64,000 nt of DNA, from the sequence record ON212266.1; one strand, 5' to 3'. Position numbers and translations under genes: made by a program. Positions 955 through 21,502 of this stretch are shown here, one piece after another; within the stretch, counting starts at the first letter, position 1, and each line of letters begins with the position of its first letter. The stretch is from Enterobacter phage fGh-Ecl02. A model generated the notes under the pieces. That model ran no database searches, was not told the DNA's origin, and saw only the letters and a list, made by a program, of their open reading frames with translations.

Positions 955-1701
955 ATGGCATCTCTCCAGGATCTACGCAAGCTGAATGACTTCGAAAACC
1001 GTCATTACACATTCCAGCAGTACGAACTTCCTTACAAGGAACTGGAGTGTGTGACGACGGAAAACGGTCGTCATTATGTATCGCCGACTGGTGTCAAGCT
1101 GACATCCGTCACGACTATGCTGGGGCGTACTGGTGATCATGAATGGCTTGAGGCTTGGAGGAAGAAGCTAGGTGCAGAGGCCGCCGACCTTGAGACCATG
1201 CGTTGCGCTGACCGAGGGGAGAAGCTGCACCTTGCGTGCGAACTGTATTTGAAGAACCGCCCAATGAAAGAAGTGTTGGAAGCGGCTGGCGAATACATGT
1301 TCATGTTCAAGCAGCTGTTCCCTTACCTGAACAAGATGACAAAGATCTATGCTCAGGAGATCCCATTATATAGCGAGGTGCTTGGTCTTGCAGGTCGAGT
1401 AGACCTTATCGGGATTTATGAGGGTAAACCTGCTATCATCGACTTCAAGACATCGAACACCATGAAGACGCGGGGCATGATCGAGGATTACAGTATCCAG
1501 CTGTGCTTATATTCGGTCATGTTCCAGCAGATGTTCGGCGTCAAGATCACCCGCCTCATCAACGTGATTGCCAACGAGTCTTCCCCTCTACCAACCGTAA
1601 TTGAGTTCAACCGTGATGACATTCTGACAAAGATGTTTGAGCGTGTTCGTCTGTATCATCGCATGGATAAAGAACAAAACGGAGTCTGGCCAGATCACTA
1701 A
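955..1701 (+). CDS. PD-(D/E)XK family nuclease (Cas4/RecB/YqaJ-like exonuclease fold)
   Basis: AAGGA SD upstream. GRVDLIG...IIDFKTS matches the D-x(n)-(D/E)xK catalytic arrangement, with an upstream SVTT motif typical of lambda-exo-like enzymes. Confidence 0.5.
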   Translation: MASLQDLRKLNDFENRHYTFQQYELPYKELECVTTENGRHYVSPTGVKLTSVTTMLGRTGDHEWLEAWRKKLGAEAADLETMRCADRGEKLHLACELYLKNRPMKEVLEAAGEYMFMFKQLFPYLNKMTKIYAQEIPLYSEVLGLAGRVDLIGIYEGKPAIIDFKTSNTMKTRGMIEDYSIQLCLYSVMFQQMFGVKITRLINVIANESSPLPTVIEFNRDDILTKMFERVRLYHRMDKEQNGVWPDH

Positions 1702-1729
1702 ATACCCCATAATTCTTGGGAGATTTTGT

Positions 1730-3238
1730 ATGGCAGACATCCAGATTGTTAAGGTTAACGAAGTCCGCATGCGTTGCATCGCAGATCTTTCTATCAGGGA
1801 AGAACTGAATGACTACTTCAAATTCGAAGACCCGAACTTCGTTCCCAACCCCTTCTCTAAATGGGACGGGGTTGTTCGCTTGTTCGCCAAGTCATCCGGC
1901 CTGATTGATATCGGCCTACTGTTTGAGGTGTTCAAGTTCTGCAAGAACAACAACTACACCATTGAACTGGATCCGGCTCTGAAGTACATTCAGGACATCC
2001 CAGATCAAGAAATCCATGACTTCATCGACAGTCTGCATCCAAAGATCCGCACCGAAAATCACGAATATATCGATGCCGAGACTCGTGACTACCAGTACGA
2101 CACCATCGCCAAGGCTATGCGTCAAACCAGATGCGTCTGTGAACTGGCTACGAGTGCCGGTAAGTCCTTTATTCTGTATGTCATGGCGCGGTACTACAGG
2201 CGACGCAGAGAAGCTCTCGAAAGTCCTCTGAAGACGCTTATCGTGGTGCCGTCAATCCACCTAGTCACTCAGCTGTACGACAACTTCGAAGAGTATGCGC
2301 ATGGCAGTGATTGGAAGCCCGTTGTTAACACCCAGCTGATTTTTGAGGGCGCGACAAAGGAGATCAGCAAACCAATCGTCATCAGTACATGGCAAGGCAT
2401 TCAAGATCAACCGAAGGAATGGTTCCACCAGTTCGGTGATATCGTGGTGGATGAAGTGCACACCTCCAAGTCTGAGAAACTGTCTTACATCCTAAACAAC
2501 TGCATCTATGCCGACCAGCGCCTGGGGGTTACAGGTACGCTGGCGAATACCAAAGTTGCCGGGCTTCAGGTGGTGGCTCACTTCGGGGCGTACCATAAGA
2601 TCATCACGGCTCGCGATCTTATCAATCTCGGGTACGCCACTGACATCAAAGTGAAGATGATTCAGCTGAAGCACACTCCGGCGGATGCTGTTGGTCTGGA
2701 CGGGGATTATTCCAAGGAAATAGAATACCTTATTACACACCAGTCCCGCAACGAACTGATCGCCAAGATGGCACTGAATCTGAAAGGAAACGTGGCCATC
2801 ATGTTCGAGCGTATTGATGGTCACATGATGGTCGTGTATGATATGCTGAGCGCAGTCAAGCCCAACGTGTTTGTCATCAACGGGGAAGTGAAGATCGAAG
2901 ACCGCCGCCGCATACAGAAAGCGATGGAGGATGGAGAGGACATCACCCTGTTGGCATCATACGGGACAATGCAGCAGGGAGTGTCGATCAAGAAGCTACA
3001 CCACCTTGTACTGGCACACCCGAGCAAGTCATATATCCGCGTCATACAGACATTGGGTCGTCTGATGCGTCAGCACTCCTCTAAGGACGTCGCGTGGATA
3101 TGGGACTTAGTGGATGATGCATCGTACAACGCCAGCACGAACCACGCTCTTAGGCACTCTCATGAGCGTTACAAGTTTTACCTGGCAGAGCGCCACCCTG
3201 TGGAGTTCATGAAGGTGGCGCTGGGTAATCACGATTAA
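1730..3238 (+). CDS. uvsW: UvsW-like SF2 DNA helicase (recombination/repair helicase)
   Basis: Track ORF 1637 trimmed to Met32 after the upstream stop, with GGGAG SD. Blocks ELATSAGKSF, TLIVVPS, TWQGIQDQPKEWFHQFGDIVVDEVH and KLHHLVLAHPSKSYIRVIQTLGRLMRQHSSKDVAWIWDLVDD are near-identical to T4 UvsW motifs. Confidence 0.85.
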   Translation: MADIQIVKVNEVRMRCIADLSIREELNDYFKFEDPNFVPNPFSKWDGVVRLFAKSSGLIDIGLLFEVFKFCKNNNYTIELDPALKYIQDIPDQEIHDFIDSLHPKIRTENHEYIDAETRDYQYDTIAKAMRQTRCVCELATSAGKSFILYVMARYYRRRREALESPLKTLIVVPSIHLVTQLYDNFEEYAHGSDWKPVVNTQLIFEGATKEISKPIVISTWQGIQDQPKEWFHQFGDIVVDEVHTSKSEKLSYILNNCIYADQRLGVTGTLANTKVAGLQVVAHFGAYHKIITARDLINLGYATDIKVKMIQLKHTPADAVGLDGDYSKEIEYLITHQSRNELIAKMALNLKGNVAIMFERIDGHMMVVYDMLSAVKPNVFVINGEVKIEDRRRIQKAMEDGEDITLLASYGTMQQGVSIKKLHHLVLAHPSKSYIRVIQTLGRLMRQHSSKDVAWIWDLVDDASYNASTNHALRHSHERYKFYLAERHPVEFMKVALGNHD

Positions 3239-3606
3239 TCTTGATTCACATAGGCGGGGGTGGCCTCGCCTTCATCAGTTACTACACCGAACAATTTGTC
3301 CAGAGAAGCCAGACATTGTGAGTTCAGGTGTTCACTGATCGTATCCTTCAGCATTTGTTCACTACCCAATTTGAATGGCAGAACCTTCGCTTCGATGCCG
3401 TTTTCAAACGTCACAACACCGACATACAGACCAACTTTCAGGCCTGTCATCAACCCCAGAGGGACAAATCGCGGCTCCGATGGTAAGTTCTTGTCTGACG
3501 CCAGCTGTGTCAGATAAACTGGGGTGCCTGTGGTAAATTGATCTGTGGTGAGGTTGGCGTCTGGTTTACTACACCCAACTGCGTATAATCCTACGAACTG
3601 TTTCAT
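3235..3606 (-). CDS. hypothetical protein
   Basis: 123 aa minus-strand ORF with GAGAG SD, divergent from the gene 45 regulatory region. Confidence 0.4.
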   Translation of the reverse strand: MKQFVGLYAVGCSKPDANLTTDQFTTGTPVYLTQLASDKNLPSEPRFVPLGLMTGLKVGLYVGVVTFENGIEAKVLPFKLGSEQMLKDTISEHLNSQCLASLDKLFGVVTDEGEATPAYVNQD

Positions 3607-3950: not shown

Positions 3951-4619
3951 ATGCAAGAGATCACTCTCTCCGAACGCACACTTCAGTTGCTGGCTAACTT
4001 TGAGACCATCAACCCATCTATCGTCCTGACACCAGGCAAGATGCTGCGCAGCATTAACGATTCGTCTACTGTTATCGCCGTGGCACAGATCGAAGAAGAC
4101 TTCCCGTTTGAGTTCCCGATTCTGGACCTGACCAAACTTCTGGCCATCCAGCGCCTACCTTCCTTCAAAGGTGCCAAAGCCGAATTCCATCAGGACTACA
4201 TCCTGTTGAAAGGCGAAAGCTCTCAGCTGCAATTCTGGCGTTCTGCTAAAGAACTCACGGTCGTCCCGGCTGATACTATTGAACTGCCGTCTGTTGACTT
4301 TGAAGCTATCATCACTCCAGAGAAGATGAAAGAACTGACCCGCGCCTGTTCTACCCTCGGACACAAGACTGTGCGCTTGGTTGCTCAGGGTGGCAAAACT
4401 CGCCTGGTTGCAACCACCACTACCTTGGATAACTCCAACAACTACACCGTTGAGCTGGGCGAAACCGCGCTGCCGGACTTCGTAATGCCGCTGGATGTTG
4501 CCAACCTGAAAATGATCGAAGGCAACTACACTCTGCGTGCCTGTGCTGATCTACAGATGGTGAACTTCCAATCATCCGACGCGACGATCAATTACTTCGT
4601 CGGCGCACAGATTGAGTAA
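3951..4619 (+). CDS. 45: DNA polymerase sliding clamp (gp45 family)
   Basis: 222 aa, GAGGA SD, T4 gp45-like length and sequence, immediately upstream of the clamp-loader genes. Confidence 0.8.
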   Translation: MQEITLSERTLQLLANFETINPSIVLTPGKMLRSINDSSTVIAVAQIEEDFPFEFPILDLTKLLAIQRLPSFKGAKAEFHQDYILLKGESSQLQFWRSAKELTVVPADTIELPSVDFEAIITPEKMKELTRACSTLGHKTVRLVAQGGKTRLVATTTTLDNSNNYTVELGETALPDFVMPLDVANLKMIEGNYTLRACADLQMVNFQSSDATINYFVGAQIE

Positions 4620-4635: not shown

Positions 4636-4644
4636 TGCTATAAT
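4636..4644 (+). promoter_or_regulatory. extended -10 promoter TGcTATAAT between genes 45 and 44
   Basis: TGnTATAAT consensus. Confidence 0.45.
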
Positions 4645-4699
4645 GTGTGGGCGGGGCGTTCCCCGCCTATTTGAAATGATTCTTCTACACGAGGCTGAA

Positions 4700-5689
4700 A
4701 TGTCTAATATCACTATCGTTTCCGACCAGTACGCATGGGAAAACAAGTACCGCCCTGACAACCTGGACGAGATTATCATCCCTCAAGACGTCCGCGCTAA
4801 AATCCATGGCTACATCACCAGCGGCAACGGCAACATCCCGTCTATGCTGTTCTACTCCCCTCAGCCTGGTACTGGCAAGACTACCTCCGCCCTGGCCGTG
4901 TGTAATGAAATCGGTTGTAAGCAACCACTGATGATCAACGCATCCCTGGACAACAGCATCGACGTTATCCGTGACCGCGTGATTCAGTATTCTACTGGTG
5001 TGAGCGTATTCGGCGGCCGCAAAGTTGTTATCCTTGACGAAGTAGAACGTCTGTCTATGGCGGCACAGGAGTCGCTGAAGGGTATTGTGGAGAAGGTCTC
5101 CAAGAACTGTTCATTCATCCTGACCACCAACGCCAAGCAACGTGTGAACGAACCTCTGCGCTCTCGTTGCCGTGAAATCGACTTTATCTGGAATGAGACC
5201 GAGGCTGATGAGGTAAAACTTCAGTTCATGCGCCGCTGTGCTGAAATCCTTCGCTGCGAAGGTGTTGAGTATGACCCTCCTGTGTTGGCTGCTATTGTCA
5301 AGCGCCATTTCCCCGATAACCGCCGCATCATGGGTGTTCTACAGGATAACGTCACCACTTACGGCAAGATCGACGAACGTGCACTGGCTGTGTTAAAATC
5401 GGCCGATATGGGCATGTTGGTGAATATGTTGAAGGATAATGACTGGGCTGGGATGAAGCAGTGGGTGACCGACAACCAGAACTATATCACTGAAGACTTC
5501 TATTCCCGCTTCTTCCAGTTCTGTGTACCACAGGATAAAGAGAAGCAAATGTTGGTTCAGAATGAGTCTATCCCTGATCTGGTATGCGTATGTGGTCAGT
5601 CTCAGATTGAACACCGTCAAGTCGGCGATGTCTGGCTGCATGCTGTGTTTTTCCTGACCAATGTCATGCTCAACATCAAGTGGAAGTGA
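4700..5689 (+). CDS. 44: clamp loader large subunit (gp44, AAA+)
   Basis: Start moved to Met20 of the track ORF (GAGG SD). ENKYRPDNLDEIIIPQD...YSPQPGTGKTTSA Walker A matches T4 gp44 (EQKYRP...HSPSPGTGKTT). Confidence 0.85.
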   Translation: MSNITIVSDQYAWENKYRPDNLDEIIIPQDVRAKIHGYITSGNGNIPSMLFYSPQPGTGKTTSALAVCNEIGCKQPLMINASLDNSIDVIRDRVIQYSTGVSVFGGRKVVILDEVERLSMAAQESLKGIVEKVSKNCSFILTTNAKQRVNEPLRSRCREIDFIWNETEADEVKLQFMRRCAEILRCEGVEYDPPVLAAIVKRHFPDNRRIMGVLQDNVTTYGKIDERALAVLKSADMGMLVNMLKDNDWAGMKQWVTDNQNYITEDFYSRFFQFCVPQDKEKQMLVQNESIPDLVCVCGQSQIEHRQVGDVWLHAVFFLTNVMLNIKWK

Positions 5690-5693
5690 TATT

Positions 5694-6116
5694 ATGGCCG
5701 CTCTTGGATTGTTCGATTACCTGGCTGCTCTGAACAGCAGCAAAGAAAACCTTTTGCGGTCTGATGACCCAGAAGTGTTGAAAGGATTCGACCCGTTTAT
5801 GACGCGGCGTGGTTTAGCTCAGAGCAAAGACACTCTAGTGGCTGCGCAACAGATGAATAAGCTACATGCTATCACTCCATGGATGCAATGGTCATATGCC
5901 TTTTACACCATTCCGGCTCGGAAACGCTACGACAAATGGTCTAAGAAAGGTCCGATTGATCCTGACGTGAAGTTACTCTCCGAGTACTTCTACATCAGCA
6001 TGGAGAAGGCATCGGAGTACGTCCGTTTCTTGCCGAAGGAAGTCCTGGCCGAAATACGCGAGAAGATGAGACGCACTGAGCTGAACGCCAAAGCGAAACC
6101 GCGCAAGGCTAAGTAG
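5694..6116 (+). CDS. 62: clamp loader small subunit (gp62-like)
   Basis: Position after gp44 and RKRYDKWSK resembling T4 gp62 RGKRYGKWAK. Start at the ATG just after the gp44 stop. Confidence 0.65.
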   Translation: MAALGLFDYLAALNSSKENLLRSDDPEVLKGFDPFMTRRGLAQSKDTLVAAQQMNKLHAITPWMQWSYAFYTIPARKRYDKWSKKGPIDPDVKLLSEYFYISMEKASEYVRFLPKEVLAEIREKMRRTELNAKAKPRKAK

Positions 6117-6145: not shown

Positions 6146-6610
6146 ATGGCGCGTAATACGCTAGACATATTGAATATTTCAGCAGTCAACGATGAGGCCA
6201 GCATCGTTGACTGTATGGTTGAAGTTCAATTGAACCAAGATCGGCCAGGTATATTCCTGGGGATCAAGGAAACACTGAGTCGAATTGGGGTAAACACGCG
6301 CCAAGAGCCGAATACTCTGTATCAGACTTGCCATATTCTTCATAAGTGTGGCAAGTATTATATCGTCCACTTTAAGCATCTATTTATGCTGGACGGGCAT
6401 TACAACGGATTTAACCGCGAAGATGTCCTGAGGATGAACCGAATCATCAAGCTGCTGGAGCAGTGGAACATGGTGAAGGTCATTCATCCTGAGCAGGTCA
6501 CCGAAGCCGCCGATATGTCTCGCATTAAAGTGGTTAAACACGATCAGGTTCCTGAATGGAAGCTGGTTCCAAAATACATCATCCGGCCTACGAAGGCAAA
6601 AAGCGAATAA
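6146..6610 (+). CDS. regA: RegA translational repressor
   Basis: YQTCHILHKCGKYYIVHFKHLFMLDG and C-terminal EWKLVPKYIIRP closely match T4 RegA (YQSCHILQKKGLYYIVHFKEM...EWKLVPKYTI). Confidence 0.85.
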   Translation: MARNTLDILNISAVNDEASIVDCMVEVQLNQDRPGIFLGIKETLSRIGVNTRQEPNTLYQTCHILHKCGKYYIVHFKHLFMLDGHYNGFNREDVLRMNRIIKLLEQWNMVKVIHPEQVTEAADMSRIKVVKHDQVPEWKLVPKYIIRPTKAKSE

Positions 6611-6626: not shown

Positions 6627-7499
6627 ATGACAACTACATTTTCTAAGAACGTGAATCTGAATCTGGCTTTCGGTAATGCAAAGGGCGACGTCACATCGCC
6701 CGACTTTGGCAAGATCCGCAATCAGGCGAAACTGGTGCTGGAAGAAACCCGTGAACTGCTGGAAGCGGCGTATTTCGACCACGAGGTGAAAATTGAGTTC
6801 ACTGCATCTCCGCGAGTCCTGAAAGAACCCGTTGTTGTCGACATCAAAGACATTATGCGCCAGATCATGGATGCCCAGGGTGACATCACAACAGTCAACG
6901 ACGGCGTGGCTCATATTGCTGGTTTCGACGGTGACGAATGCCTACAGCGCGTGTATGCCTCTAACATGAGCAAGTTCATTCGTAATGAAGGTGAAGTTGT
7001 GCCTGCACTGGATTACTACTACAACAAAGGCTTCCCACGCGAAAGTCTACGCATCGAAGGGGAATTCCCTCAGGCGTGCATCAAAGTGGTAGACACCATC
7101 ACCGTCGACGGCAAAGAATACCCGGCTGGCAAGTTCCTGAAGAACATGGCAACCTTCAAAGAGCCTGACTTCTCTGATATGTTGACCGCCGAGCCTAAGC
7201 GCCAGATCACCGAAATCATTCTGACAGGTACGGCTACCCCAGGTCGACTCGGATGCAACGAACATGCTGGTGTTGCCTACGCGCCGTTCGATTTTATTGA
7301 CGAGATCGTGGGATACACCAAGATGGGCTTCCAGGCGTTCTCTGGCGAAACAGTCGAGAGCTACATTCCTGTGTTTGTTTTCAATGAAGATAACTTTCCA
7401 ACTCTACCGTTGATCTGGGGTGAATGGAAAGCCAACGTCCGTATCTATGTGGCCAGCCCAGTGCAATCATCTATAACCCAACTGACCCGTATCGATTAA
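6627..7499 (+). CDS. hypothetical protein (possible MazG/HisE-like all-alpha NTP-pyrophosphatase N-terminal region)
   Basis: 290 aa, GGAG SD. N-terminal helical region with a KLVLEETRELLEAA...D...E pattern, assignment weak. Confidence 0.45.
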   Translation: MTTTFSKNVNLNLAFGNAKGDVTSPDFGKIRNQAKLVLEETRELLEAAYFDHEVKIEFTASPRVLKEPVVVDIKDIMRQIMDAQGDITTVNDGVAHIAGFDGDECLQRVYASNMSKFIRNEGEVVPALDYYYNKGFPRESLRIEGEFPQACIKVVDTITVDGKEYPAGKFLKNMATFKEPDFSDMLTAEPKRQITEIILTGTATPGRLGCNEHAGVAYAPFDFIDEIVGYTKMGFQAFSGETVESYIPVFVFNEDNFPTLPLIWGEWKANVRIYVASPVQSSITQLTRID

Positions 7500-7523
7500 G
7501 ATATACGGTTATTCACTAAACAA

Positions 7524-7550
7524 CAGAGGCTATAATGGCCTCTGTTTTCG
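7524..7550 (+). terminator. intrinsic terminator cagaggc-TATAATG-gcctctg + TTTTCG
   Basis: 7-bp GC stem + T-run. Confidence 0.7.
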
Positions 7551-7567
7551 TATTCTAAGAGGATACC

Positions 7568-8791
7568 ATGAAAGATAAACCATATGACATCCCATATTGC
7601 GGTGTCCGTGAAACCAAAATCAAATCAGCCCATCCTATGTTAAGTTCATTCCACCGCCAGCTGGCATATGAATGGATGAGGGATCGTTATGCGATACATG
7701 TCAAGAAGGACGTGCAATGTCTTCCAGCGCCATGGACGGATAATCCGGTATTACGCCAAGTCAAGTTTTGTAACGTGCGGAGAGAGCACGATAGACAGTC
7801 TCGAAATTTGATCAATAATATCATCCTCAATCAGGATCTCACGCTATCTGACAAAATGTTCAACTGTGTATTGTTCCGCATGTACAACATGTGGGAACCT
7901 ATACAGGCTTTGGGTGGTCCATGGACGATCGAAGAATTCGGAAACATAAATCTTGAATGGTGTCGAAATGTTCTTCAGGAATTCGAATCTAAAGGTGGCA
8001 AAGTTTTCACCAATGCGTTTAATACAGGCGGTCTGAAACAATGCCTGGCTTTCCCCGAACTAGTTGTCAACCACAAGGAGCAGTGCTTCGGTGGGATGAT
8101 GGTGAATCTGATCTGTAAAGACGGTTCAACCCAGAACATGGATTACAAGAAAGCCAAGGCCATCGCTGAAGCAGAGCCGGACTTCTACACCATCGAAGGT
8201 TGGGAACCGTACATGCCAATGCGTGTCATCCGCTCCCTGAAGGCATTCGTCAACAAACACCCTCATTACTTTGATCGCCTCAGGGAATTTAGCCGTCCCG
8301 ACTCTGTTTACCAGGCGATGTATGACGACATTGAGGGGCTTGGACCATTCTTGGCATACCAGATTTGGGTTGATTTTACGTACATCGATGAATATCCATT
8401 CAGTGAAAACCACTTCACTATCGCTGGTCCCGGTTGCCGTGCTGGTATCGATCTGTTATTTTTGGACAAGGACGGCATGACGCATGAAGAATGCATATTC
8501 TGGGTTCGTGATCATCAAGATCAATTGTTCGCTCAGTATGGGTATAAACGTAATGAATTTTGGTCGGCAGAAGAACCGGAAGATCGTTGCATGAATGTTA
8601 TGCAGCTGGAGAACATGTTCTGTGAACTTCAGAAATATACCCGCTGCGTTGAGGCGGTGATGCGCGGGGAGAAACCTCGAGGAAAGGTGGGGTATGACGG
8701 GAATGGCAGTGCGTATAAGCAACGTTGTGATGAAGTCGTGCTCAAACGTGGTTCCGTCAATTTGCTGGACCGTTTGAAGAAACCTGAATAA
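7568..8791 (+). CDS. hypothetical protein (407 aa; candidate DNA base-modification enzyme)
   Basis: AGAGGA SD, preceded by a terminator. No confident motif. Sits where T4 has gene 43. Confidence 0.5.
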   Translation: MKDKPYDIPYCGVRETKIKSAHPMLSSFHRQLAYEWMRDRYAIHVKKDVQCLPAPWTDNPVLRQVKFCNVRREHDRQSRNLINNIILNQDLTLSDKMFNCVLFRMYNMWEPIQALGGPWTIEEFGNINLEWCRNVLQEFESKGGKVFTNAFNTGGLKQCLAFPELVVNHKEQCFGGMMVNLICKDGSTQNMDYKKAKAIAEAEPDFYTIEGWEPYMPMRVIRSLKAFVNKHPHYFDRLREFSRPDSVYQAMYDDIEGLGPFLAYQIWVDFTYIDEYPFSENHFTIAGPGCRAGIDLLFLDKDGMTHEECIFWVRDHQDQLFAQYGYKRNEFWSAEEPEDRCMNVMQLENMFCELQKYTRCVEAVMRGEKPRGKVGYDGNGSAYKQRCDEVVLKRGSVNLLDRLKKPE

Positions 8792-8905
8792 AGATTCCCT
8801 TTACTTCGTTCTTCAATAACTCAATCCAGCGTATATTAACCTCACTTAAACGAAGCGCCCTGACAAACGGGGCGCACATTTGAACTGAAACAGGAAGACT
8901 ACATC

Positions 8906-10924
8906 ATGTCAGAATTTAAGCCCTTCGCAGTAGCTGTCAACAATAACGTGCTGGCCATGTCAGCAACTGGTCTGTTCATGACCAACATCGATAAAGATGC
9001 TCTGTGGGATCTGTATCTGTCTTCTTTCCCTGCTGGCACTAACCCGCTTTATCGTGAGCGTACCGAGCACGACTGTACCTGCTGTAAACAATTCATCCGT
9101 AATATCGGCGGTGTGGTCACCATCGACTCCGACCTGAACGTGATCTCTATCTGGGATAACATTCAGCTGGGTAACGAATACGACGTTGTCGCTTCGGCGC
9201 TGTCAGCGTATGTTAAGCAGCACGCAATCGTCGACGTGTACTTCAACGACACCAAGAAAGTTGGTGTTGAGTCGAATCACGAAATGAAAGACGGTATTGT
9301 CCGCACCTACAACCACTTCCACACCGACCTGCTGGGCAGCTATGTTCTGCGGGCAGATACCATCGCTTCTAAGAAGGGTGAAATCCGCCAGGCGATTGAA
9401 GTGTTTGAGCGCGGCCTGCGTGAACTGTCTCTGGAATCGGCTGAAATCGTTCTTGAATTGATTGACCAGAATTCTCTGTATCGCGGTGAAGAGCACAAAG
9501 CGGCAGTGCAGGCGTTCGTGGTGAACAAGACCCTGTACGAACAAACTGCAGAAGAGAAACGCGCTCTGTGGGCTTGGCGCACTGGCTACCGTGCAAACGG
9601 TCATACCCCTCACGGCATTCGTAATACCGTGATTGGCTCTCTGCTGGTAGACCTCAATGAAGGTCGTGATCTGGAAACCGCCGTGAAGTCCTTTGAAGCC
9701 AAAGTCGCTCCGACGAACTACAAGCGCCCAACCGCGCTGGTCACGAAGTCCATGATTGAAAACGCGCAGAAAGAAGTCGAAGCGCTGGGTCTGACCGATT
9801 CACTGGGTCGCCGTTATGCCGTGTATGACGATCTGACCATCAACAACGTTCTGTTCGCCGATCTGGCAGTTCAGAAGAAGATGGACCCGTTTGCTCAGCT
9901 GGCGTCTGAAGTGAAGACTCCGACCAAGTCCCTGGACAAGGTTGAAGAGATCACGATCGACGACTTCCTGACCAACGTGTTGCCAAAGGCGCATTCCCTG
10001 GAAGTACTGGTCGAAAACTCTCACATTGGCAACCTGATGTCCCTGATCGCTCCGGCTACCGCAGGCGCTCCTAACCTGTTCAAGTGGAACAACGGCTTCA
10101 GCTGGTCGTACAATGGCGAAGTGGCCGACTCCATCAAAGAGCGCGTGAAGACCGCAGGCGGTAATGTCGACAGTTTCCTCCGTGTGTCACTGGCTTGGCA
10201 TAACAACGACGACCTGGATCTGAGCATGAACGATCCTCTTCACAACCACGTATATTTTCGCAACCGTCGTTCGTCAACTGGCGCAACTCTGGACATCGAT
10301 ATGAACGGTATGGATGGGATTGATCCAAACCGCCGTCCGGTGGAGAACATCTTCTTCAGCGATGAACGCAAGCTGCGTGACGGGAATTATGAGTTCTATG
10401 TCACCAACTTCAACAAGCGTGAAACCTGTGACGTTGGTTTCGAAATCGAAGTTGAATACAAAGGCCAGACTAAGCGCTTCTCACACCCTGGCCTGGGTAA
10501 CAAAGATCGCACGTTGGCTGTTGTGGTTCAGGTTCGCGCTGGTCAGGTGGTCAACATCAGTTCTACCCTGAAAGACGACGCTCGCTCTCAGGAAATCTGG
10601 GGCATCAAGACCTCCGTCTTCCAGAAGGTACAGCTGGTTCTGAACTCACCAAACCATTGGGACGGCGAGCAGACTGGCAACAAGCACGTGTTCTTCATCC
10701 TGGAAGGTTGCGCCAACCCTGTCGGCACCCGTGGTTTCTATAACGAATATCTGAAGCCGGAACTTGATAAACACCGCAAGGTTTTTGAAATGTTAGGTGG
10801 TAAGATTAAAGTACAGCCAAGCACTGAGCAGCTGTCCGGTCTGGGCTTCTCTACCACCCAACGCAACCACGTGTTCGTGAAGGTGAGCGGCTCTTTCAAC
10901 CGCACTGTGAAAGTTGTGTTCTAA
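8906..10924 (+). CDS. hypothetical large protein (672 aa) with N-terminal HDCTCC cysteine cluster
   Basis: AGGAAG SD. No P-loop and no polymerase or ligase motifs found. Confidence 0.5.
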   Translation: MSEFKPFAVAVNNNVLAMSATGLFMTNIDKDALWDLYLSSFPAGTNPLYRERTEHDCTCCKQFIRNIGGVVTIDSDLNVISIWDNIQLGNEYDVVASALSAYVKQHAIVDVYFNDTKKVGVESNHEMKDGIVRTYNHFHTDLLGSYVLRADTIASKKGEIRQAIEVFERGLRELSLESAEIVLELIDQNSLYRGEEHKAAVQAFVVNKTLYEQTAEEKRALWAWRTGYRANGHTPHGIRNTVIGSLLVDLNEGRDLETAVKSFEAKVAPTNYKRPTALVTKSMIENAQKEVEALGLTDSLGRRYAVYDDLTINNVLFADLAVQKKMDPFAQLASEVKTPTKSLDKVEEITIDDFLTNVLPKAHSLEVLVENSHIGNLMSLIAPATAGAPNLFKWNNGFSWSYNGEVADSIKERVKTAGGNVDSFLRVSLAWHNNDDLDLSMNDPLHNHVYFRNRRSSTGATLDIDMNGMDGIDPNRRPVENIFFSDERKLRDGNYEFYVTNFNKRETCDVGFEIEVEYKGQTKRFSHPGLGNKDRTLAVVVQVRAGQVVNISSTLKDDARSQEIWGIKTSVFQKVQLVLNSPNHWDGEQTGNKHVFFILEGCANPVGTRGFYNEYLKPELDKHRKVFEMLGGKIKVQPSTEQLSGLGFSTTQRNHVFVKVSGSFNRTVKVVF

Positions 10925-10968
10925 ACCTGATTTGAAATTGTGACCCATTCATCATTGAGGATAGTAAA

Positions 10969-11340
10969 ATGTTTGATAAAGCAACCCGTATGAAACTGCG
11001 CTTCGAGTCTAACAAAGGCCTGTTGTCTGTTGAGCAGGTCTGGGACCTGAGCCTGACTGCCCTGAACGAAATGGCGAAAGGTCTGAGCCGCCAGGTGAAA
11101 GCAGCAGAAACCGATGAAGAAGATTTCATTGGCACCAAAAGTAACGTTGACTCCGAACTGCAGCTGCGCTTCGACGTTGTCAAGCACATCATCGGCGTTA
11201 AGCTGAAAGAACGTGACGACAGCAGAGACGCGGCAGAGCGTAAGGCGAACAACCAGATTATCCTGGAGCTGATCCAGCGTAAGAAACAGCAAGAGCTGGA
11301 AAGCAAATCTGTTGAAGAACTGGAAGCGCTGCTGAAATAA
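10969..11340 (+). CDS. hypothetical charged/coiled-coil protein
   Basis: 123 aa, K/E-rich, followed by a strong intrinsic terminator. Confidence 0.5.
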   Translation: MFDKATRMKLRFESNKGLLSVEQVWDLSLTALNEMAKGLSRQVKAAETDEEDFIGTKSNVDSELQLRFDVVKHIIGVKLKERDDSRDAAERKANNQIILELIQRKKQQELESKSVEELEALLK

Positions 11341-11362
11341 CCCTGTTGGCCTCGGCCTGAGC

Positions 11363-11390
11363 AACCCCGCCATGTGCGGGGTTTCTTTTG
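11363..11390 (+). terminator. intrinsic terminator
   Basis: aaccccgc-catgt-gcggggtt + tcttttg. Confidence 0.75.
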
Positions 11391-11400
11391 GACAAAGAAT

Positions 11401-11811
11401 ATGAAACCTGTTATATGTGATTACTGTGGCCTCCCAGCCGAATTCGTCGGTGGTGATGTTCTCTACCCTCATCGCCCTGACCTCCGCAATCTGAAGTTCT
11501 GGGTGTGCACTCCATGTGATGCCCGTGTCGGTTGCCATGCCCATGGCGACGGCAGACAACCTTTGGGAAGGATGGCGAATGCCGCTCTCCGTGCTGCTAA
11601 GCAGGAAGCCCATAGATCGTTTGACCCATTGTGGAAAAGCGGAGAGAGGAGCAGGAGCGACGCTTACAGTTGGCTGGCGCATAAGCTGGGGATAAAGAAG
11701 CGTGAGTGTCATATTGGCTTGTTCGATATCGACATGTGCCGTAAAGTAGTTGTTGTCTGTCAACAATACGAGGTACATATCAATGTCAAAGGAAATACAA
11801 GAAGCGTTTGA
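11401..11811 (+). CDS. zinc-finger (CxxC...CxxC) domain protein
   Basis: Start at Met10 of the track ORF. CDYCG...CTPCDARVGCH cysteine pattern. Confidence 0.45.
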   Translation: MKPVICDYCGLPAEFVGGDVLYPHRPDLRNLKFWVCTPCDARVGCHAHGDGRQPLGRMANAALRAAKQEAHRSFDPLWKSGERSRSDAYSWLAHKLGIKKRECHIGLFDIDMCRKVVVVCQQYEVHINVKGNTRSV

Positions 11812-12088
11812 GAATCTAACTCAGGCGCTCACCAACTGCAACCGTCTCAACTATTGCAACGACCCATTGCAAAAGCTGAAGTCCCTGGTAGAATCAGAAC
11901 TGGCTAAACTGGCCGAATACAACGCCATCCAAGAAGACGTGGTGTTCATGTCGGACACGGTCGTAGACACCCTTCCGCGCGAAGTGTACAATGTATTGGG
12001 TCGCATCGCAAAGGTGGGTTTCCGTGAACCACAAGACGCCAAACCCACCCCCGAAATTCTTACATCCATCGTTGACTCGTTTAAGTGA
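11783..12088 (+). CDS. hypothetical protein
   Basis: 101 aa (MSKEIQ...), overlaps the end of the upstream gene. Confidence 0.4.
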   Translation: MSKEIQEAFENLTQALTNCNRLNYCNDPLQKLKSLVESELAKLAEYNAIQEDVVFMSDTVVDTLPREVYNVLGRIAKVGFREPQDAKPTPEILTSIVDSFK

Positions 12089-12095
12089 GACCACC

Positions 12096-12329
12096 ATGTC
12101 TAAAGAGATTATTTTTACCGGGGCGGCGCTTGACACCATGTATGCCCTGTACAATCGTGGTCCACTGAGCATTGGCGATATCCCGTCTAAGTCAGGTCTG
12201 GACTTCCTGTTGCGACATAAGCTGGTTGTGGCTGTGGTAGTCAGGGGTGAAACGCAATACGCCGGGTCGATGGCCATGGCTTCCCACTACAAACGTCAGA
12301 CATGGAAGGGCGCTTCCTCCAAATCCTGA
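12096..12329 (+). CDS. hypothetical protein
   Basis: 77 aa (MSKEIIF...), internal Met of the track ORF just after the upstream stop. Confidence 0.35.
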   Translation: MSKEIIFTGAALDTMYALYNRGPLSIGDIPSKSGLDFLLRHKLVVAVVVRGETQYAGSMAMASHYKRQTWKGASSKS

Positions 12330-12397
12330 GTTTGTCAAAACCTTTTCAATATCAATAACGTCCAGCGTAAATGCTGGGCGTTTCAATTAGCAGTACA

Positions 12398-12406
12398 TGG
12401 TATAAT
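12398..12406 (+). promoter_or_regulatory. extended -10 promoter TGgTATAAT
   Basis: TGnTATAAT 29 nt before the ATG at 12435. Confidence 0.45.
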
Positions 12407-12434
12407 GGGACTGCTGACGAATACGAGGTGTATC

Positions 12435-12797
12435 ATGTCTGTGAAGATGAAAGGTGCTGAGTTCAAAACCTATTATCACGATGACCAATATTGGGTACAA
12501 GACGCCTGGCACGAAGATCACGTCATCAAAGTGAATGGCGAATATGTCGAAGATGTAATCGACGATGAGATCCCTAACGATGCTGATGTCGTGATCGAGT
12601 CTGGAGTTGTCTATATTCCGTCTCAAACTGATAGCGGTCGTGTTGAAAAGGAAGTGTCGCTTGTTACTCACTTCAAGAACTGGCGCAAGCAGAACAAATT
12701 CTCCTTCATCGTCGTGACGGTGGAGAAGGACAAGGTCGCCGATGTTCGCCAAGCCCTGCGGTCGATCCCTGGCGTTACTGAAGTCAAGGGCGGCTGA
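12435..12797 (+). CDS. hypothetical protein
   Basis: 120 aa downstream of an extended -10 promoter TGgTATAAT, with GAGG SD. Confidence 0.5.
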   Translation: MSVKMKGAEFKTYYHDDQYWVQDAWHEDHVIKVNGEYVEDVIDDEIPNDADVVIESGVVYIPSQTDSGRVEKEVSLVTHFKNWRKQNKFSFIVVTVEKDKVADVRQALRSIPGVTEVKGG

Positions 12798-12798
12798 T

Positions 12799-12969
12799 AT
12801 GGCCAAACCATTTGAACGTGTGGGCGTCGACAACCTCGACCGCCGCTTTAGCCCATCGGAAACGCTGATGAGTCAGATTGAACTCAATCGCGACTTCCTT
12901 GAATATATGCTGGTCAAGCCGGAAGGTGAGGCCGAAGACAACCCTGAAGAAGGCAATAACGATGATTGA
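12799..12969 (+). CDS. hypothetical small acidic protein
   Basis: 56 aa, overlaps the vWA gene start by 8 nt. Confidence 0.3.
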   Translation: MAKPFERVGVDNLDRRFSPSETLMSQIELNRDFLEYMLVKPEGEAEDNPEEGNNDD

Positions 12970-15163
12970 ATCATTAGAATTTAAGAATGCGGTTGCGACT
13001 GCTGCCCCGTCCAACCATGTAATCGTTGTAGACATTTCCGGCTCGATGTACCGTGCGCTCCCTGAAGTCCGTAAGCACCTGAAGGAGAACCTGCCTTCCT
13101 TGGTGAAGCCAGAAGACACTGTGAGTGTTCTATACTTCTCATCCAAAGGCGACTTTGGCACTGTGTTCGCTGGCCGTCAGATCAATGCAGCATCCGACCT
13201 GAGCGAAATCAACAATCTAATTGACCGCTTCCTGAAACCGTCTGGTTGCACTGGCTTTGTTGAGCCGTTGAAACTGGCGATGGACACTGCTCGTGGCCTG
13301 AAGAAGCCTGGCTATGTCAACAACCTGGCGTTCATGACTGACGGGTATGACAACTGCTGGCGTACCAACGAAATTCTACTGGTTGCTGAGACCCTGCCAT
13401 TTGCTTTCGATAACATTACATTTATCGAATACGGCTGGCACTGTAACCGTGAACTGCTGGCGCAGATGGCCGAACACTCTGGTGCTACTCACGTGTTTGC
13501 CGAAGGTCAGACCGAATACCAGACCGAACTGGAAAACGTGCTGAAGTCATCAGTACCGAAGGTGGTTGTTGATGTGCCTCTGCTATACACCCACGCTATC
13601 TATGTTGAAAACGGCGTAGCAACTGTGCTGGCGGTACAGCCGGATGAAGACCATCCTATCGGCCACGTGAGCATCCCTGAGAGCGTCACCAAGCTGTGGG
13701 TTGTAAACCCTAACATGATCGACCAGATGGATAGCCTGACGGAAATCCAGGCGGCATACGTGCTGGCGTTCTACGGTGTACACACTATGGACGCAGATCT
13801 GGTTTGGGCTGCGCTGAAGAAGACTGGCGACGTTCGCTTCATCAAACAGTACAGCAACTGCTTCACCAAGCAGGACTACTCCAACATCAAGAACGATCTG
13901 GTACAGGCGATTGTTGACGACCAGCTGCGTGGTGTTGACGGTATTGACTATGACCTGGTTCCGGCCGAAGACGCGACCACCGTCGTTGATGTGCTGACGT
14001 ACCTGGCTGAAGCTGGTGTGCCTGTTGCTACCAAGCATCCGATGTTCTCCTATAAGAGTATCGGGCGCGGTACTGTGCAGAAAACCGACGACACCGAAGA
14101 CAAGCTGGCAGAACAGATCGCGAATGCTCAGTCCAAAGAAGAGCGTAAAGCCCTGGCTCTCAAGCTGGCAGAACACGAAGAGTGGAACCCGACGTTCGAA
14201 CCTACCAACGACCTGGGTGTTGTGCCAATCAGCGATTTGGTCTATAACTCCGAGCGCCCGAACATCAGTGTGCGCACTATTCAGCATGGTACTGTGACTG
14301 TCCCTGAGTTCGCACAGAAGAAGTTTGGTCTGCCTGAAGAACTGGATACTTTCCAGTGGCGCAACTACACCATCGTCAAAGACGGTATCATTAACGTGAA
14401 GACTCTGCCGTTCAAGGCTGATATCGAAGTTGTACAGAAGCTGATCGAAATGGGTGTCCACGTGTTTGGTGGTCCGGAAGTGTTTGTCCTGAACCTGGAA
14501 AGCGTACCGCTGGTCAACCGCGCCATGGTCAAGAACATCAGTGCTGCTCAGTTCTTTGCGGATAATGTCCGTCTGGAAGCCCTGAAAGGCAAGCAGAAGG
14601 TGCTGAAGTTCTATCGAGACGCCCTGGTTGGTAAGGGTAACGCCAAAGGCCTGGCAGTACAGTACGGCGCTGAGGCGGCCGAGTTCCTGTCCTCCTACGG
14701 CATCCGCGATTACGGCTTCTCACCGAAGACTGAGACCAAAGAGTCTACCGACTTCTACATGAGCCGTGAGCTGAACGTTAAGATTGCCGGGGCGTCTTCC
14801 CTACCGAGCATCGCGACAGTACAGAAGAAGATTGCTGAGAACAAGAAACTCAATGCGGGTGACTTGTTCATCGCCAATGCGCTGAAGGAGTACGATGCAT
14901 TCGTGAAGTCTCCTATGATCACTGCCGTGCCTGAAGCCTTACAGAAACAGCTGATCGAAAACTGGATCGACGCTGCTGCCAAGGCGGCCATCACCGAAGT
15001 CCGTGCCCTGAACAAGACACTGTCTAAAGTGGTGTATGGTATCGTTGCTGGCCACGGCTGGTTCACCGACCTCGACCTGGAAGAGTCCACCATGGAAGTT
15101 GAAGTGGATGGCGTGAAGTACAAGGTCACTGCCGAACTGACAGAGAAAGAAATCAAAATCTAA
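12962..15163 (+). CDS. von Willebrand factor A (vWA) domain protein with N-terminal MIDAS motif, 733 aa
   Basis: VIVVDISGSM (DxSxS MIDAS) at residues ~25-35 followed by a typical vWA beta-alpha pattern (SVLYFSS...TGFVEPL). The long C-terminal region is unassigned. Confidence 0.7.
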   Translation: MIESLEFKNAVATAAPSNHVIVVDISGSMYRALPEVRKHLKENLPSLVKPEDTVSVLYFSSKGDFGTVFAGRQINAASDLSEINNLIDRFLKPSGCTGFVEPLKLAMDTARGLKKPGYVNNLAFMTDGYDNCWRTNEILLVAETLPFAFDNITFIEYGWHCNRELLAQMAEHSGATHVFAEGQTEYQTELENVLKSSVPKVVVDVPLLYTHAIYVENGVATVLAVQPDEDHPIGHVSIPESVTKLWVVNPNMIDQMDSLTEIQAAYVLAFYGVHTMDADLVWAALKKTGDVRFIKQYSNCFTKQDYSNIKNDLVQAIVDDQLRGVDGIDYDLVPAEDATTVVDVLTYLAEAGVPVATKHPMFSYKSIGRGTVQKTDDTEDKLAEQIANAQSKEERKALALKLAEHEEWNPTFEPTNDLGVVPISDLVYNSERPNISVRTIQHGTVTVPEFAQKKFGLPEELDTFQWRNYTIVKDGIINVKTLPFKADIEVVQKLIEMGVHVFGGPEVFVLNLESVPLVNRAMVKNISAAQFFADNVRLEALKGKQKVLKFYRDALVGKGNAKGLAVQYGAEAAEFLSSYGIRDYGFSPKTETKESTDFYMSRELNVKIAGASSLPSIATVQKKIAENKKLNAGDLFIANALKEYDAFVKSPMITAVPEALQKQLIENWIDAAAKAAITEVRALNKTLSKVVYGIVAGHGWFTDLDLEESTMEVEVDGVKYKVTAELTEKEIKI

Positions 15164-15168
15164 TCCAA

Positions 15169-15194
15169 CGGGCGGGGCAACCCGCCTTTCTTTG
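15169..15194 (+). terminator. intrinsic terminator after the vWA gene
   Basis: ggcggg-gcaa-cccgcc + tttcttt. Confidence 0.65.
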
Positions 15195-15205
15195 GGAGAA
15201 GTAGC

Positions 15206-15529
15206 ATGAGCAGTAAACCAACATATGTTGAAGTCATGCGTCATCTGGCTCAGTACGCCACTGACAATCTGAATATGGATCTGTGGCGTGACGATGACAA
15301 GCGCAAATTGCTGGACGACGTGGCATCTCAGAACGAGGACGCCCTGGACAAGCTGGCTGGCCTCCGTACCAAGAAAGACCTCGGTGGTGACGAACTGGAT
15401 GCCATCGAAATCGTAATGGAACTAGAAGAAGAGTTTCAGGTCGAAATCGACGACGGGTGGCTAGGTAGTAAAGGCGATGACCCGACCATGGGTGAACTCG
15501 CTGAACTCGTGGTTGCCCTGCGCAAATAA
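15206..15529 (+). CDS. acyl carrier protein-like protein lacking the phosphopantetheine-acceptor serine (Ser->Glu)
   Basis: DLGGDELDAIEIVMELEEEFQVEI versus E. coli ACP [24 protein letters not shown]. The DSL serine is replaced by E. GGGAG SD. Terminators on both sides. Confidence 0.6.
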   Translation: MSSKPTYVEVMRHLAQYATDNLNMDLWRDDDKRKLLDDVASQNEDALDKLAGLRTKKDLGGDELDAIEIVMELEEEFQVEIDDGWLGSKGDDPTMGELAELVVALRK

Positions 15530-20529: not shown

Positions 20530-20970
20530 ATGGCTGGTGTATGGTGTGATGTCTTGCTGGTTCGTTACAGCGTAAATGGGTGTGTTCAAGTGCGTTCCGC
20601 CTTCTATCCAGTACCGTTCTCCTCTGGTGGTCTTACAGCTCAGAGGGTGTTAAGTATCGAAGCAGAACTGAACGCGAAGACATATATCGGCGATACACAA
20701 GTGTTGGGATACGATCTTCTGAACGAAATGTTGATCGATGAAGATAAGGTAGAAACCATTATTGTTAGCCGTCAAGAAATGGAGGTCTTGATGAAACCGG
20801 AAGGCACCGAAAAGACTGAAGTTCAAACGGTGTCTGTGCCTGTCACACCAACACAGGAACGCCTTGATGCCATTGCTGGATTATTCACGTATGGATTTTG
20901 TGATGATCGCATGGCTCGTGGTATCTATGCCGCCGCACTGGGCGTTGAGAAACAAACGGAGCAAATATGA
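20530..20970 (+). CDS. hypothetical protein
   Basis: 146 aa, coupled to the upstream gene. Confidence 0.4.
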   Translation: MAGVWCDVLLVRYSVNGCVQVRSAFYPVPFSSGGLTAQRVLSIEAELNAKTYIGDTQVLGYDLLNEMLIDEDKVETIIVSRQEMEVLMKPEGTEKTEVQTVSVPVTPTQERLDAIAGLFTYGFCDDRMARGIYAAALGVEKQTEQI

Positions 20971-21095
20971 GCACAAAGACTGTAATCGTGGTGAAAGGCT
21001 ATTAATTCCGCTTTATTCAATAAAATTTGTTAGTTAAACTGTAGTCCTCTTGTAGTGAACATGAAAGTAAACATTAACCCAACGGAGAAATCCAG

Positions 21096-21374: not shown

Positions 21375-21423
21375 TTCTATCTGACGCGCGGCCAGGCTCT
21401 GCAATCAGGGCATGGCAAAAGAG

Positions 21424-21457
21424 AAAGCCGGAGTACAATGCTCCGGCTTTTTCGTTC
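21424..21457 (+). terminator. intrinsic terminator after the HU gene
   Basis: aaagccggag-tacaatg-ctccggcttt + tttcg. Confidence 0.8.
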
Positions 21458-21502
21458 TTGGGGATCGGGTAAACTATAGGCGAATCCCATAGGAGGAAGA
21501 AA

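Follow-up and report, generated by a model that had tools for sequence, protein, structure and literature searches.

Genes downstream of regA

The window (the whole stretch of 64,000 nucleotides that was analysed) contains three neighbouring open reading frames on the plus strand, each with an ATG start, which encode proteins of 290, 407 and 672 amino acid residues (positions 6627–7499, 7568–8791 and 8906–10924, respectively). Upstream of the first of them lie the genes for the gp45 clamp (3951–4619), gp44 (4643–5689), gp62 (5661–6116) and regA (6146–6610), all identified with Pfam and PHROGs, which confirms the coordinates and the gene order given in a preliminary description of this DNA. Hundreds to thousands of full-length homologues were found for each of the three proteins, and therefore all three open reading frames are real genes. 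The window DNA is 90–94% identical to Agtrevirus and related genomes and, as judged from its sequence, represents an Agtrevirus-like genome of the Ackermannviridae. Enterobacter phage fGh-Ecl02 encodes proteins with 100% identity to those of 290 and 407 residues. The intergenic region between the 290- and 407-residue reading frames carries a terminator-like hairpin (7522–7546, plus strand; an 11-pair stem followed by a T-rich tail), identified by a match to the consensus only.

The three genes had been described as occupying the position of T4 gene 43 and as lacking polymerase, ligase and P-loop motifs. The motifs are indeed missing: Walker A, DxxSLYPS, YGDTDS and KxDG were found in none of the three proteins, and the family B polymerase motifs of T4 gp43 (DxxSLYPS, KxxxNSxYG and YGDTDS) were found neither in these proteins nor in any of the six frames of the 64-kb window. 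The statement on the position is true as synteny, but the arrangement is not unusual, as the polymerase gene of ViI (Vi01_190) is located about 55 kb from regA. Gene organisation in the Ackermannviridae has been described as scattered (PMC11721090), and the lack of a polymerase gene after regA is normal in this family. Nor are the genes unassigned, as had been thought, since GenBank, RefSeq and published work already name two of them in close relatives. All three are known, conserved genes of ViI-like phages (Ackermannviridae).

The 290-residue MazG-like protein

The proposal that the 290-residue protein (6627–7499) has a MazG-like N-terminus was supported by profile searches. In PHROGs the protein matched phrog_2144 'MazG-like pyrophosphatase' (E=6.6e-133) and phrog_671 'nucleotide pyrophosphohydrolase' (E=2.8e-20), and when a diverse profile of the N-terminal region was compared with the PDB, the top matches were all to the MazG-like NTP-PPase DR2231, with marginal E-values (0.0026–0.09). 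Pfam models gave no match, even at E≤5. The protein retains three of the four canonical acids of the EExxE ... ExxD metal motifs: in EETRE (residues 39–43) E40 and E43 are invariant, and in the second motif, DAQGD, D86 is invariant and the first acid is replaced by Gln. DR2231 of Deinococcus radiodurans and stand-alone phage MazG-like proteins such as gp091 of Pectobacterium phage CB4 align with the N-terminal 110–190 residues or so, across the helices that carry EExxE and GD and across the SNxSK motif, whereas the additional C-terminal segment of about 100 residues and the Gln in the second metal motif set the 290-residue protein apart from them. These comparisons support the presence of an all-alpha NTP-PPase-like domain in the N-terminal ~190 residues. 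The protein is 59% identical to Vi01_131c of ViI, with the divergence mostly after residue 190, and the C-terminal ~100 residues are a lineage-specific, fast-evolving extension.

An enzyme of the MazG type would use the EExxE/D metal site to cleave a (d)NTP to monophosphate and pyrophosphate, and the 290-residue protein may serve in grooming of the dNTP pool, with dUTP or dTTP as possible substrates. A role in hypermodification is not implied, because the same MazG domain occurs alone in phages without hmdU. N4-like and Pseudomonas phages have it as a stand-alone domain.

The 407-residue protein, the orthologue of ViI gp160

The 407-residue protein (7568–8791) was assigned to aGPT-Pplase clade 1 (PF18723; 280.2 bits with a Pfam cut-off of 25, model positions 5–278 of 281) as the orthologue of ViI gp160 (Vi01_130c, YP_004327501.1), to which it is 79% identical over the full length. 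The correspondence of ViI gpN to orf000N was verified via gp226, which is both YP_004327553 and orf00226, and therefore gp160 is Vi01_130c. This protein ('aG/PT-PPlase1' of Lee et al. 2018) belongs to the same PF18723 family and has the same place after regA and the MazG gene, and nothing of substance differs between the two. Lysate experiments identified gp160 among five ViI gene products sufficient for the formation of 5-NeOmdU (PMC5889632), and the Agtrevirus orthologue has already been termed aGPT-Pplase1 in the SW16-7 paper (PMC10458263). The earlier guess that an aGPT-Pplase is encoded here was thus correct as to the family, but the protein belongs to clade 1 and not to the characterised clade 2 transferases (PF18724). 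We found no published report of enzymatic activity for any PF18723 protein.

In the current release of Pfam, the former aGPT-Pplase clade 1 is called '5-hmdU DNA kinase helical domain' (HMUDK_hel), a name that hides the old designation. The domain has a glycosylase-like fold and a conserved Glu/Cys/Glu cluster. Despite the Pfam name, the 407-residue protein has neither a Walker A motif nor a match to PF18748, and so no kinase domain. Its predicted model has a helix-hairpin-helix DNA-glycosylase-like fold, and the PDB entry that it matches second best is the solved clade 2 enzyme.

The clade 2 enzymes, amino-acid:DNA transferases (ADDT), include ViI gp247, M6 gp51 and PaMx11 gp46 (PDB 8Z2M). 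No match of the 407-residue protein to PF18724 was found in Pfam, and a profile–profile comparison of the two clades (hhalign, with an alignment of gp46 and the TSW001 and Vibrio ADDT proteins) gave a probability of 0.2%, that is, no sequence relationship. The protein is about 110 residues longer than clade 2 ADDT, and the Thr metal ligand of the latter is replaced by an Asn that is not conserved. E348 and C352 are invariant, are kept in SP10 and have the same spacing as the metal ligand E243 and the catalytic C247 of gp46, a likeness that concerns a short motif and the overall fold. The Cys-Glu pair, the Glu four residues upstream and many polar residues are invariant down to 23% identity (SP10).

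Association with the 5-hmdU DNA kinase and possible function

PF18723 is associated in genomes with the 5-hmdU DNA kinase (PF18748), and a kinase of this kind is also encoded in the window. In SP10 gp186 and metagenomic P0358 the two domains are fused, in opposite orders, and the PF18723 domain of both aligns end to end with the 407-residue protein, with the invariant motifs kept. In PaMx11 the PF18723 gene adjoins the kinase gene, and in Aeromonas phage TSW001 and Vibrio phage 207E48.1 it lies beside the ADDT gene, at most about 2 kb from the kinase. Unlike in the fusions, the 407-residue protein is separate and the kinase gene lies about 47 kb away (55619–56278, plus strand; PF18748 HMUDK_HMUD1, E=1.1e-108). 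The predicted product of that gene, a P-loop protein (5-HMUDK), is the actual 5-hmdU DNA kinase and the functional partner of the 407-residue protein. It is followed on the same strand by a gene for a thymidylate-synthase-like protein (56278–57324; PF00303, E=1.2e-15), a candidate for the dUMP hydroxymethylase from which 5-hmdU would come, and by a gene for a dimeric all-alpha dUTPase-family protein (57887–58441, plus strand; PF08761 dUTPase_2, E=6.7e-09), a candidate dUTPase or dTTPase of the hmdU module. The order of the kinase, thymidylate-synthase-like, kinase-like and dUTPase_2 genes is the same as in Aeromonas phage TSW001.

The 407-residue protein would most likely bind newly replicated phage DNA and flip out 5-hydroxymethyl-dU, or the form phosphorylated by the 55619–56278 kinase, and the invariant Glu348/Cys352/Glu353 cluster would then act on the flipped base. 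Amino acids can be transferred in vitro without a clade 1 protein: M6 reactions without gp55 still yielded glycinyl-T, and ViI needed gp247 (PMC8989533). From its synteny with PaMx11 gp50, M6 gp55 appears to be a PF18723 protein. Because homologues are dispensable in vitro for the hypermodified base, we infer that the clade 1 protein directs 5-hmdU to another fate or has a guiding role for the kinase in vivo. For the former, a tentative possibility is that the part of 5-hmdU left unmodified is turned into thymine, and a PF18723 protein is a reasonable candidate for this unexplained step.

In a rival reading, the 407-residue protein would be a non-catalytic accessory, no more than a DNA-binding or base-flipping helper with which the 5-hmdU DNA kinase finds its substrate or has it presented. 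We regard this as conceivable though rather doubtful. The fusions in two domain orders, the adjacency in PaMx11 and the present Pfam name agree with it, as do the dispensability of clade 1 for product formation in vitro and the fact that the SP10 kinase domain is active on its own. However, a Glu and a Cys-Glu pair that are invariant, together with polar residues, at such low identity resemble an active site rather than a scaffold, and SP10, for which no second Pplase is listed in Table 3 of PMC5889632, makes glutamyl-T, suggesting that clade 1 can be catalytic.

The 672-residue protein and its partner

The 672-residue protein (8906–10924) matched phrog_1735 over residues 1–672 (E=0), and homologues 96–99% identical to it bear a precomputed PF26675 assignment, which places it in the DUF8224 (PF26675)/phrog_1735 family. 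Its architecture, in an AF2 model with a pLDDT of 82.6, comprises an N-terminal module of about 400 residues, a beta-sandwich like that of TerD and, at the C-terminus, a conserved beta domain. The HDCTCC cysteine cluster that had been pointed out earlier is present at residues 55–60; D56, C57, C60 and H137 of the N-terminal module are invariant, and its 400 residues matched nothing that was searched. The likeness of the beta-sandwich to TerD exists at the fold level only, and the Pfam TerD model gave no match to residues 401–560 at E≤5. In comparison with TerD of tellurite resistance (PDB 2kxt, 2qz7), the sandwich is one domain within a large phage protein and lacks the ter operon context. Its invariant Asp, Asn and Glu residues suggest that it probably binds Ca2+. 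PLP, radical-SAM and glycosylase features were absent from the protein.

With clustering at 50%, the N-terminal 400 residues of DUF8224 yielded 3122 representatives; these ~3,000 lineages extend from Bacillus to Caulobacter phages, and a faint structural relative was found in a giant virus. Relatives 40–50% identical occur in Caulobacter phiCbK-like, Ralstonia phiRSL1, Bacillus Bastille-like, Klebsiella/Cronobacter and cyanophage genomes, where the gene lies away from any hmdU genes. Since DUF8224 occurs in many groups of phages for which no thymidine hypermodification is known, a hypermodification label for the 672-residue protein is unsupported.

The gene that follows (10969–11340, plus strand) encodes a small helical protein of 123 residues (phrog_2018, E=1.5e-47), which is 33–47% identical to the products of open reading frames after DUF8224 in Caulobacter Ccr10, Bacillus BCP78, Klebsiella phage DP and a 210-kb metagenomic contig. 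phrog_2018 is found in 431 phage records and adjoins DUF8224 in all six in which both coordinates were compared. The two genes form a module conserved in several groups of large phages that are not related to one another, and nothing links it to thymidine hypermodification.

The genes near DUF8224 code for RNR, Pnkp and ligase in Xp12, for ThyX and Pnk in SP-15 and for DnaB in Klebsiella phage DP. Xp12, SP-15 and a metagenomic phage have genes for a polynucleotide kinase, ligase or 3'-phosphoesterase close to it. It may be, though we consider it fairly unlikely, that DUF8224 and phrog_2018 make up an unrecognised two-protein enzyme of large phages for nucleic-acid end-processing or repair, with a TerD-like Ca2+ domain and a Cys/His metal site. 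That the two proteins are virion components and not enzymes appears improbable. The Ig/pilin-like matches of the beta-sandwich are of a kind often seen among structural proteins, but the neighbours (here the clamp loader and regA, elsewhere the genes of Xp12, SP-15 and Klebsiella phage DP) belong to replication, recombination and nucleotide metabolism, no T4-type late-promoter motif (TATAAATA) was found between positions 6 and 12 kb of the window, and 40–50% identity over a host range from Bacillus to Caulobacter is unusually high for structural accessory proteins. The residual interest of this gene pair lies in its very wide distribution and strong conservation.

Relationship among the genes of the block

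The preliminary description had proposed a module of three enzymes that takes the place of the polymerase and hypermodifies thymidine after replication. Of the three, the 407-residue protein does belong to the hypermodification gene set; such a role is not implied for the 290-residue protein and is unsupported for the 672-residue protein. The three genes (MazG, Pplase1 and DUF8224) lie side by side in the same orientation in enterobacterial Ackermannviridae, and DUF8224 relatives are present in SP-15 and Xp12, phages that have modified pyrimidines. Against a common module stands the phyletic pattern, by which it is largely refuted and made very improbable: DUF8224 at 40–50% identity in many phages away from hmdU genes, and the MazG domain alone in N4-like and Pseudomonas phages. 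Moreover, in 207E48.1 and TSW001 Pplase1 accompanies the ADDT, kinase and thymidylate-synthase-like genes and is not beside MazG or DUF8224, the MazG gene of Vibrio phage 207E48.1 being about 50 kb from Pplase1, and both the MazG and the DUF8224 genes are outside the published five-gene set of ViI (PMC5889632).

Most probably the block is not one system: its four genes, all conserved in the Ackermannviridae, are independent of one another and lie in a non-late region. In the form first put forward, the finding is an ordinary one: these are conserved genes of previously sequenced Ackermannviridae, and the member of the pathway is the already identified ViI gp160.

A DNA-directed RNA polymerase, as the 672-residue protein is labelled in ChubbyThor, Gloob, Se-B and Arace01, can practically be dismissed, as no similarity in sequence or fold to single- or multi-subunit RNA polymerases was found and the label is unsupported. 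One record labels a homologue of this protein a serine protease. Wrong public labels on the genes of the block ('RNA polymerase', 'serine protease', 'terminase small subunit' and 'ABC transporter') could mislead automated pipelines.

Genes downstream of regA

Downstream of the genes for the gp45 sliding clamp (3951-4619), the clamp loader proteins gp44 (4643-5689) and gp62 (5661-6116) and RegA (6146-6610), all identified with Pfam and PHROGs, lie three plus-strand genes with ATG starts, which encode a MazG-like protein of 290 aa (6627-7499), an aGPT-Pplase clade 1 protein of 407 aa (7568-8791) and a DUF8224 protein of 672 aa (8906-10924). These coordinates are exactly those of the preliminary description, and a regex check agreed with its claim that the three proteins lack Pol B, Walker A and KxDG motifs; the HDCTCC cluster it reported in the 672-aa protein was found at residues 55-60, and the same check placed EETRE at residues 39-43 of the 290-aa protein. 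Across the whole 64-kb window, no frame contained a Pol B motif. NCBIfam and PADLOC searches gave zero matches for the three proteins, and single-sequence PDB searches returned only noise.

The three genes are already known and not newly discovered. The DNA of the block is 90-94% identical to that of vB_EcoM-ZQ1, LHE287, SKML-39, Ag3 and P46FS4 (Agtrevirus and related Ackermannviridae), the 290- and 407-aa proteins match Enterobacter phage fGh-Ecl02 proteins with 100% identity, and the gene order is identical in ViI (clamp, clamp loader, regA, MazG-like Vi01_131c, Vi01_130c, Vi01_129c/128c). Since ViI has its DNA polymerase gene, Vi01_190, ~55 kb away and the gene organisation of Ackermannviridae is scattered relative to that of T-even phages (PMC11721090, a review), the missing gene 43 after regA is a family trait and reflects no replacement event in this genome. 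The proposal that all three genes encode thymidine-hypermodification enzymes held in that one product is aGPT-Pplase-like and another carries a MazG-like domain; however, of the three only the 407-aa gene is part of the hypermodification pathway, to which the family of the 672-aa protein has no link. Continuing interest lies in the chemistry of the clade 1 Pplase and in the very widespread pair of DUF8224 and phrog_2018 genes.

GC-rich hairpins are present in both intergenic gaps (7522-7546 and 8860-8885), the first scoring as terminator-like, which suggests that the three genes do not form one tight operon. No T4-type late promoter motif was found in the 6-12 kb region of the window. In the Salmonella phages Marshall and Maynard the block is interrupted by an HNH homing endonuclease gene, which breaks the DNA match in two.

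The 407-aa protein and the 5-hmdU DNA kinase

The 407-aa protein matched the entire PF18723 model (HMUDK_hel, 5-hmdU DNA kinase, helical domain; E=2.4e-83, 280 bits), and neither Pfam nor a motif regex detected a P-loop or kinase domain in it. PF18723 is the family first named aGPT-Pplase clade 1; one homologue is called 'aGPT-Pplase1 domain-containing protein' in a GenBank record, an Agtrevirus orthologue is called aGPT-Pplase1 in the SW16-7 genome paper (PMC10458263), and clade 2 appears in Pfam under ADDT (PF18724). The published 'gp' numbers of ViI correspond to orf numbers (checked for gp226 = YP_004327553.1 = orf00226) and Vi01_130c carries the note orf00160, which makes ViI gp160 the orthologue of the 407-aa protein, with 79% identity across 407 aa. 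In PMC5889632, where ViI gp160 appears as aG/PT-PPlase1, 5-NeOmdU was reconstituted from lysates of five gene products, gp160 among them. Another Pplase1 homologue bears the misleading public name 'phospholipid-lipopolysaccharide ABC transporter'.

The PF18723 family is tightly tied to the 5-hmdU DNA kinase. The two are fused in SP10 gp186, where the kinase comes first and the PF18723 domain second, and in the opposite order in the metagenomic protein P0358. In PaMx11 the PF18723 gene, gp50, lies directly 3' of the kinase gene, gp49, and in Aeromonas phage TSW001 and Vibrio phage 207E48.1 it adjoins the ADDT gene, with the kinase gene ~2 kb downstream. RefSeq labels both SP10 gp186 (1541-3454 of the SP10 locus) and PaMx11 gp49 (14218-14787 of the PaMx11 locus) 'terminase small subunit'. 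In the window, the kinase gene (55619-56278; PF18748, E=1e-108) adjoins thymidylate-synthase-like, kinase-like and dUTPase_2 genes. The module as a whole (55619-58986) runs kinase, TS-like, P-mevalonate/dNMP-kinase-like, dUTPase_2 and phage ACT-like genes, followed by UvsX; its TS-like gene is a candidate dUMP hydroxymethylase gene, and the same compact order is also found in TSW001.

Two readings of the function of the 407-aa protein were considered; the literature consulted gave no activity assigned to a clade 1 aGPT-Pplase. The amino acid is transferred by the clade 2 enzyme and not by clade 1; M6 reactions without gp55, which from synteny we take to be the equivalent of PaMx11 gp50, still gave glycinyl-T, and gp247 was needed for ViI (PMC8989533). 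These phages turn non-hypermodified 5-hmdU into thymine, and the M6 gp51 intermediate yields thymidine on borohydride treatment; it is therefore plausible, although we hold the idea only tentatively, that the clade 1 Pplase forms thymine from 5-hmdU. The other reading, a non-catalytic accessory of the kinase, we hold just as tentatively. Invariant residues of the family include a GPGC hairpin (287-290), E348, C352 and E353, and are kept in SP10 at 23% identity. In the clade 2 enzyme PaMx11 gp46, Cys247 acts as the nucleophile and Glu243, four residues upstream, binds metal (PMC11472151), so that the Glu-x-x-x-Cys spacing is common to both. Since hhalign detected no similarity between the clade 1 and clade 2 Pplase profiles, a correspondence of E348/C352 with E243/C247 is offered as a lead from motif spacing, and no equivalence at the level of residues or of the catalytic Cys is claimed. 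PDB searches with the profiles of the 407- and 672-aa families gave only noise, and the matches returned (a RING-finger protein and WDR24) were dismissed as such.

The 290-aa MazG-like protein

The suggestion that the 290-aa protein begins with a MazG-like region was supported. The protein matched phrog_2144 'MazG-like pyrophosphatase' (E=6.6e-133) and its first 193 residues matched phrog_671 'nucleotide pyrophosphohydrolase' (E=2.8e-20), with no match in Pfam. When a diverse six-sequence profile of the N-terminal part was searched against the PDB, the only coherent matches were to the MazG-like NTP pyrophosphohydrolase DR2231 (seven entries, best E=0.0026), in an alignment that spans the EExxE helix, the GD helix and the SNxSK motif. 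Assignment to the MazG-like NTP pyrophosphatases appears fairly secure. By tblastn, N4-like phages (Pectobacterium phage CB4), Pseudomonas phages and the Vibrio Ackermannviridae phage 207E48.1 encode a stand-alone counterpart of the N-terminal ~186 residues. Overall identity to the ViI protein is 59%, the N-terminal 190 residues being almost invariant; the last ~100 residues evolve rapidly and are present only in the enterobacterial lineage.

DR2231 prefers dUTP. The 290-aa protein may serve specifically to exclude dTTP or dUTP for the hmdU pathway, of which the phyletic pattern gives no indication; the hmdU module of the window has a separate dUTPase_2 gene. The MazG-like gene also lies 3' of regA in Vibrio phage 207E48.1 and Erwinia phage Bue1, and in the former ~50 kb separate it from the Pplase1 gene.

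DUF8224 and its partner gene

The 672-aa protein belongs to phrog_1735, and its close homologues carry PF26675 (DUF8224), for which a literature search found nothing. The family is very large: clustering at 90% leaves more than 5,394 clusters, and a search with the N-terminal 400 aa alone gave 3,122 representatives at 50%; tblastn located it in 557 phage records. Members with 40-55% identity occur in ~145-kb Klebsiella/Cronobacter phages, Caulobacter phiCbK-like siphoviruses, Ralstonia phiRSL1, Bacillus Bastille-like phages and Vibrio phages; remoter ones occur in a cyanophage, Cellulophaga phages and SP-15, and the N-terminal 400 aa alone match Xp12-like and jumbo phages. Most representatives among the matches listed have the ~670-aa architecture, and the 150 matches listed for the N-terminal 400 aa were all full-length (~660-715 aa) or shorter, too short for an additional fused domain. 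Most of the carrier phages are not known hmdU phages and no hypermodification genes were found beside DUF8224 in the contexts inspected, which argues against the proposed role of this widespread family in hypermodification.

D56, C57, C60 and H137 are invariant, C57 and C60 lying in the HDCTCC cluster, and this conservation suggests a putative metal site. A BFVD fold search with the DUF8224 model returned only uncharacterised proteins. A weak structural match of the model to A0A1V0SEF2 of the giant virus Indivirus ILV1 (E=2e-6, 12% identity) hints that the fold may also exist outside phages. In the ViI reference record the gene (7301-9320 of the ViI locus) appears as two overlapping ORFs, Vi01_129c and Vi01_128c (491 and 183 aa), with the break inside a TerD-like domain near residue 481; the split is a frameshift or sequencing error, and PHROGs holds such fragments as families of their own (phrog_23228, phrog_25920). 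The public labels 'DNA-directed RNA polymerase' and 'serine protease' for DUF8224 are misleading.

Directly downstream lies a gene for a 123-aa phrog_2018 protein (10969-11340). A homologue is found directly 3' of DUF8224 in Caulobacter phage Ccr10, Bacillus phage BCP78, Klebsiella phage DP and a 210-kb metagenomic contig, with 33-47% identity (pairwise E of 9e-18 for BCP78 and 2e-21 for Ccr10). In total, 431 phage records carry phrog_2018, and it adjoins DUF8224 in all six with coordinates compared. From this adjacency it follows that the unit of interest is 8906-11340 rather than the three genes first singled out. The small ORFs 3' of the divergent Xp12 and SP-15 relatives were not detectably phrog_2018, and the partner is thus not universal. 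Near DUF8224 lie a polynucleotide kinase/phosphatase and a ligase in Xp12, a polynucleotide kinase in SP-15, and a LigD-type phosphoesterase/ligase and an RNA ligase in the metagenomic contig, an anecdotal hint that the family may act in nucleic-acid end processing.

Several further genes were noted around the DUF8224 module and elsewhere. A 285-aa antisense ORF without a family match (10921-11778, minus strand) overlaps the partner and DUF3268 genes and is probably spurious; the RefSeq entry for P46FS4 places an ORF on the minus strand at a site where Pfam backs a plus-strand DUF3268 gene (E=2.7e-37). A 913-aa ORF at 31427-34168 belongs to phrog_3867 and is without a Pfam match. Between their DUF3268 zinc-finger and vWA genes, the relatives ChubbyThor and P46FS4 have genes for ribose-phosphate pyrophosphokinase and nicotinamide phosphoribosyltransferase (12700-15215 and 20685-23200 of the two loci compared), and the window has only small ORFs at this position (11750-12880); according to a review, the presence of these NAD-salvage genes is variable in Agtrevirus. 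Lying 1.5 kb downstream of this module, the vWA gene of the window (12878-15163) encodes 761 aa (phrog_2426) with a von Willebrand factor A domain at the N-terminus. In BCP78 an AAA ATPase gene follows the DUF8224 partner gene; a vWA/AAA link is possible.
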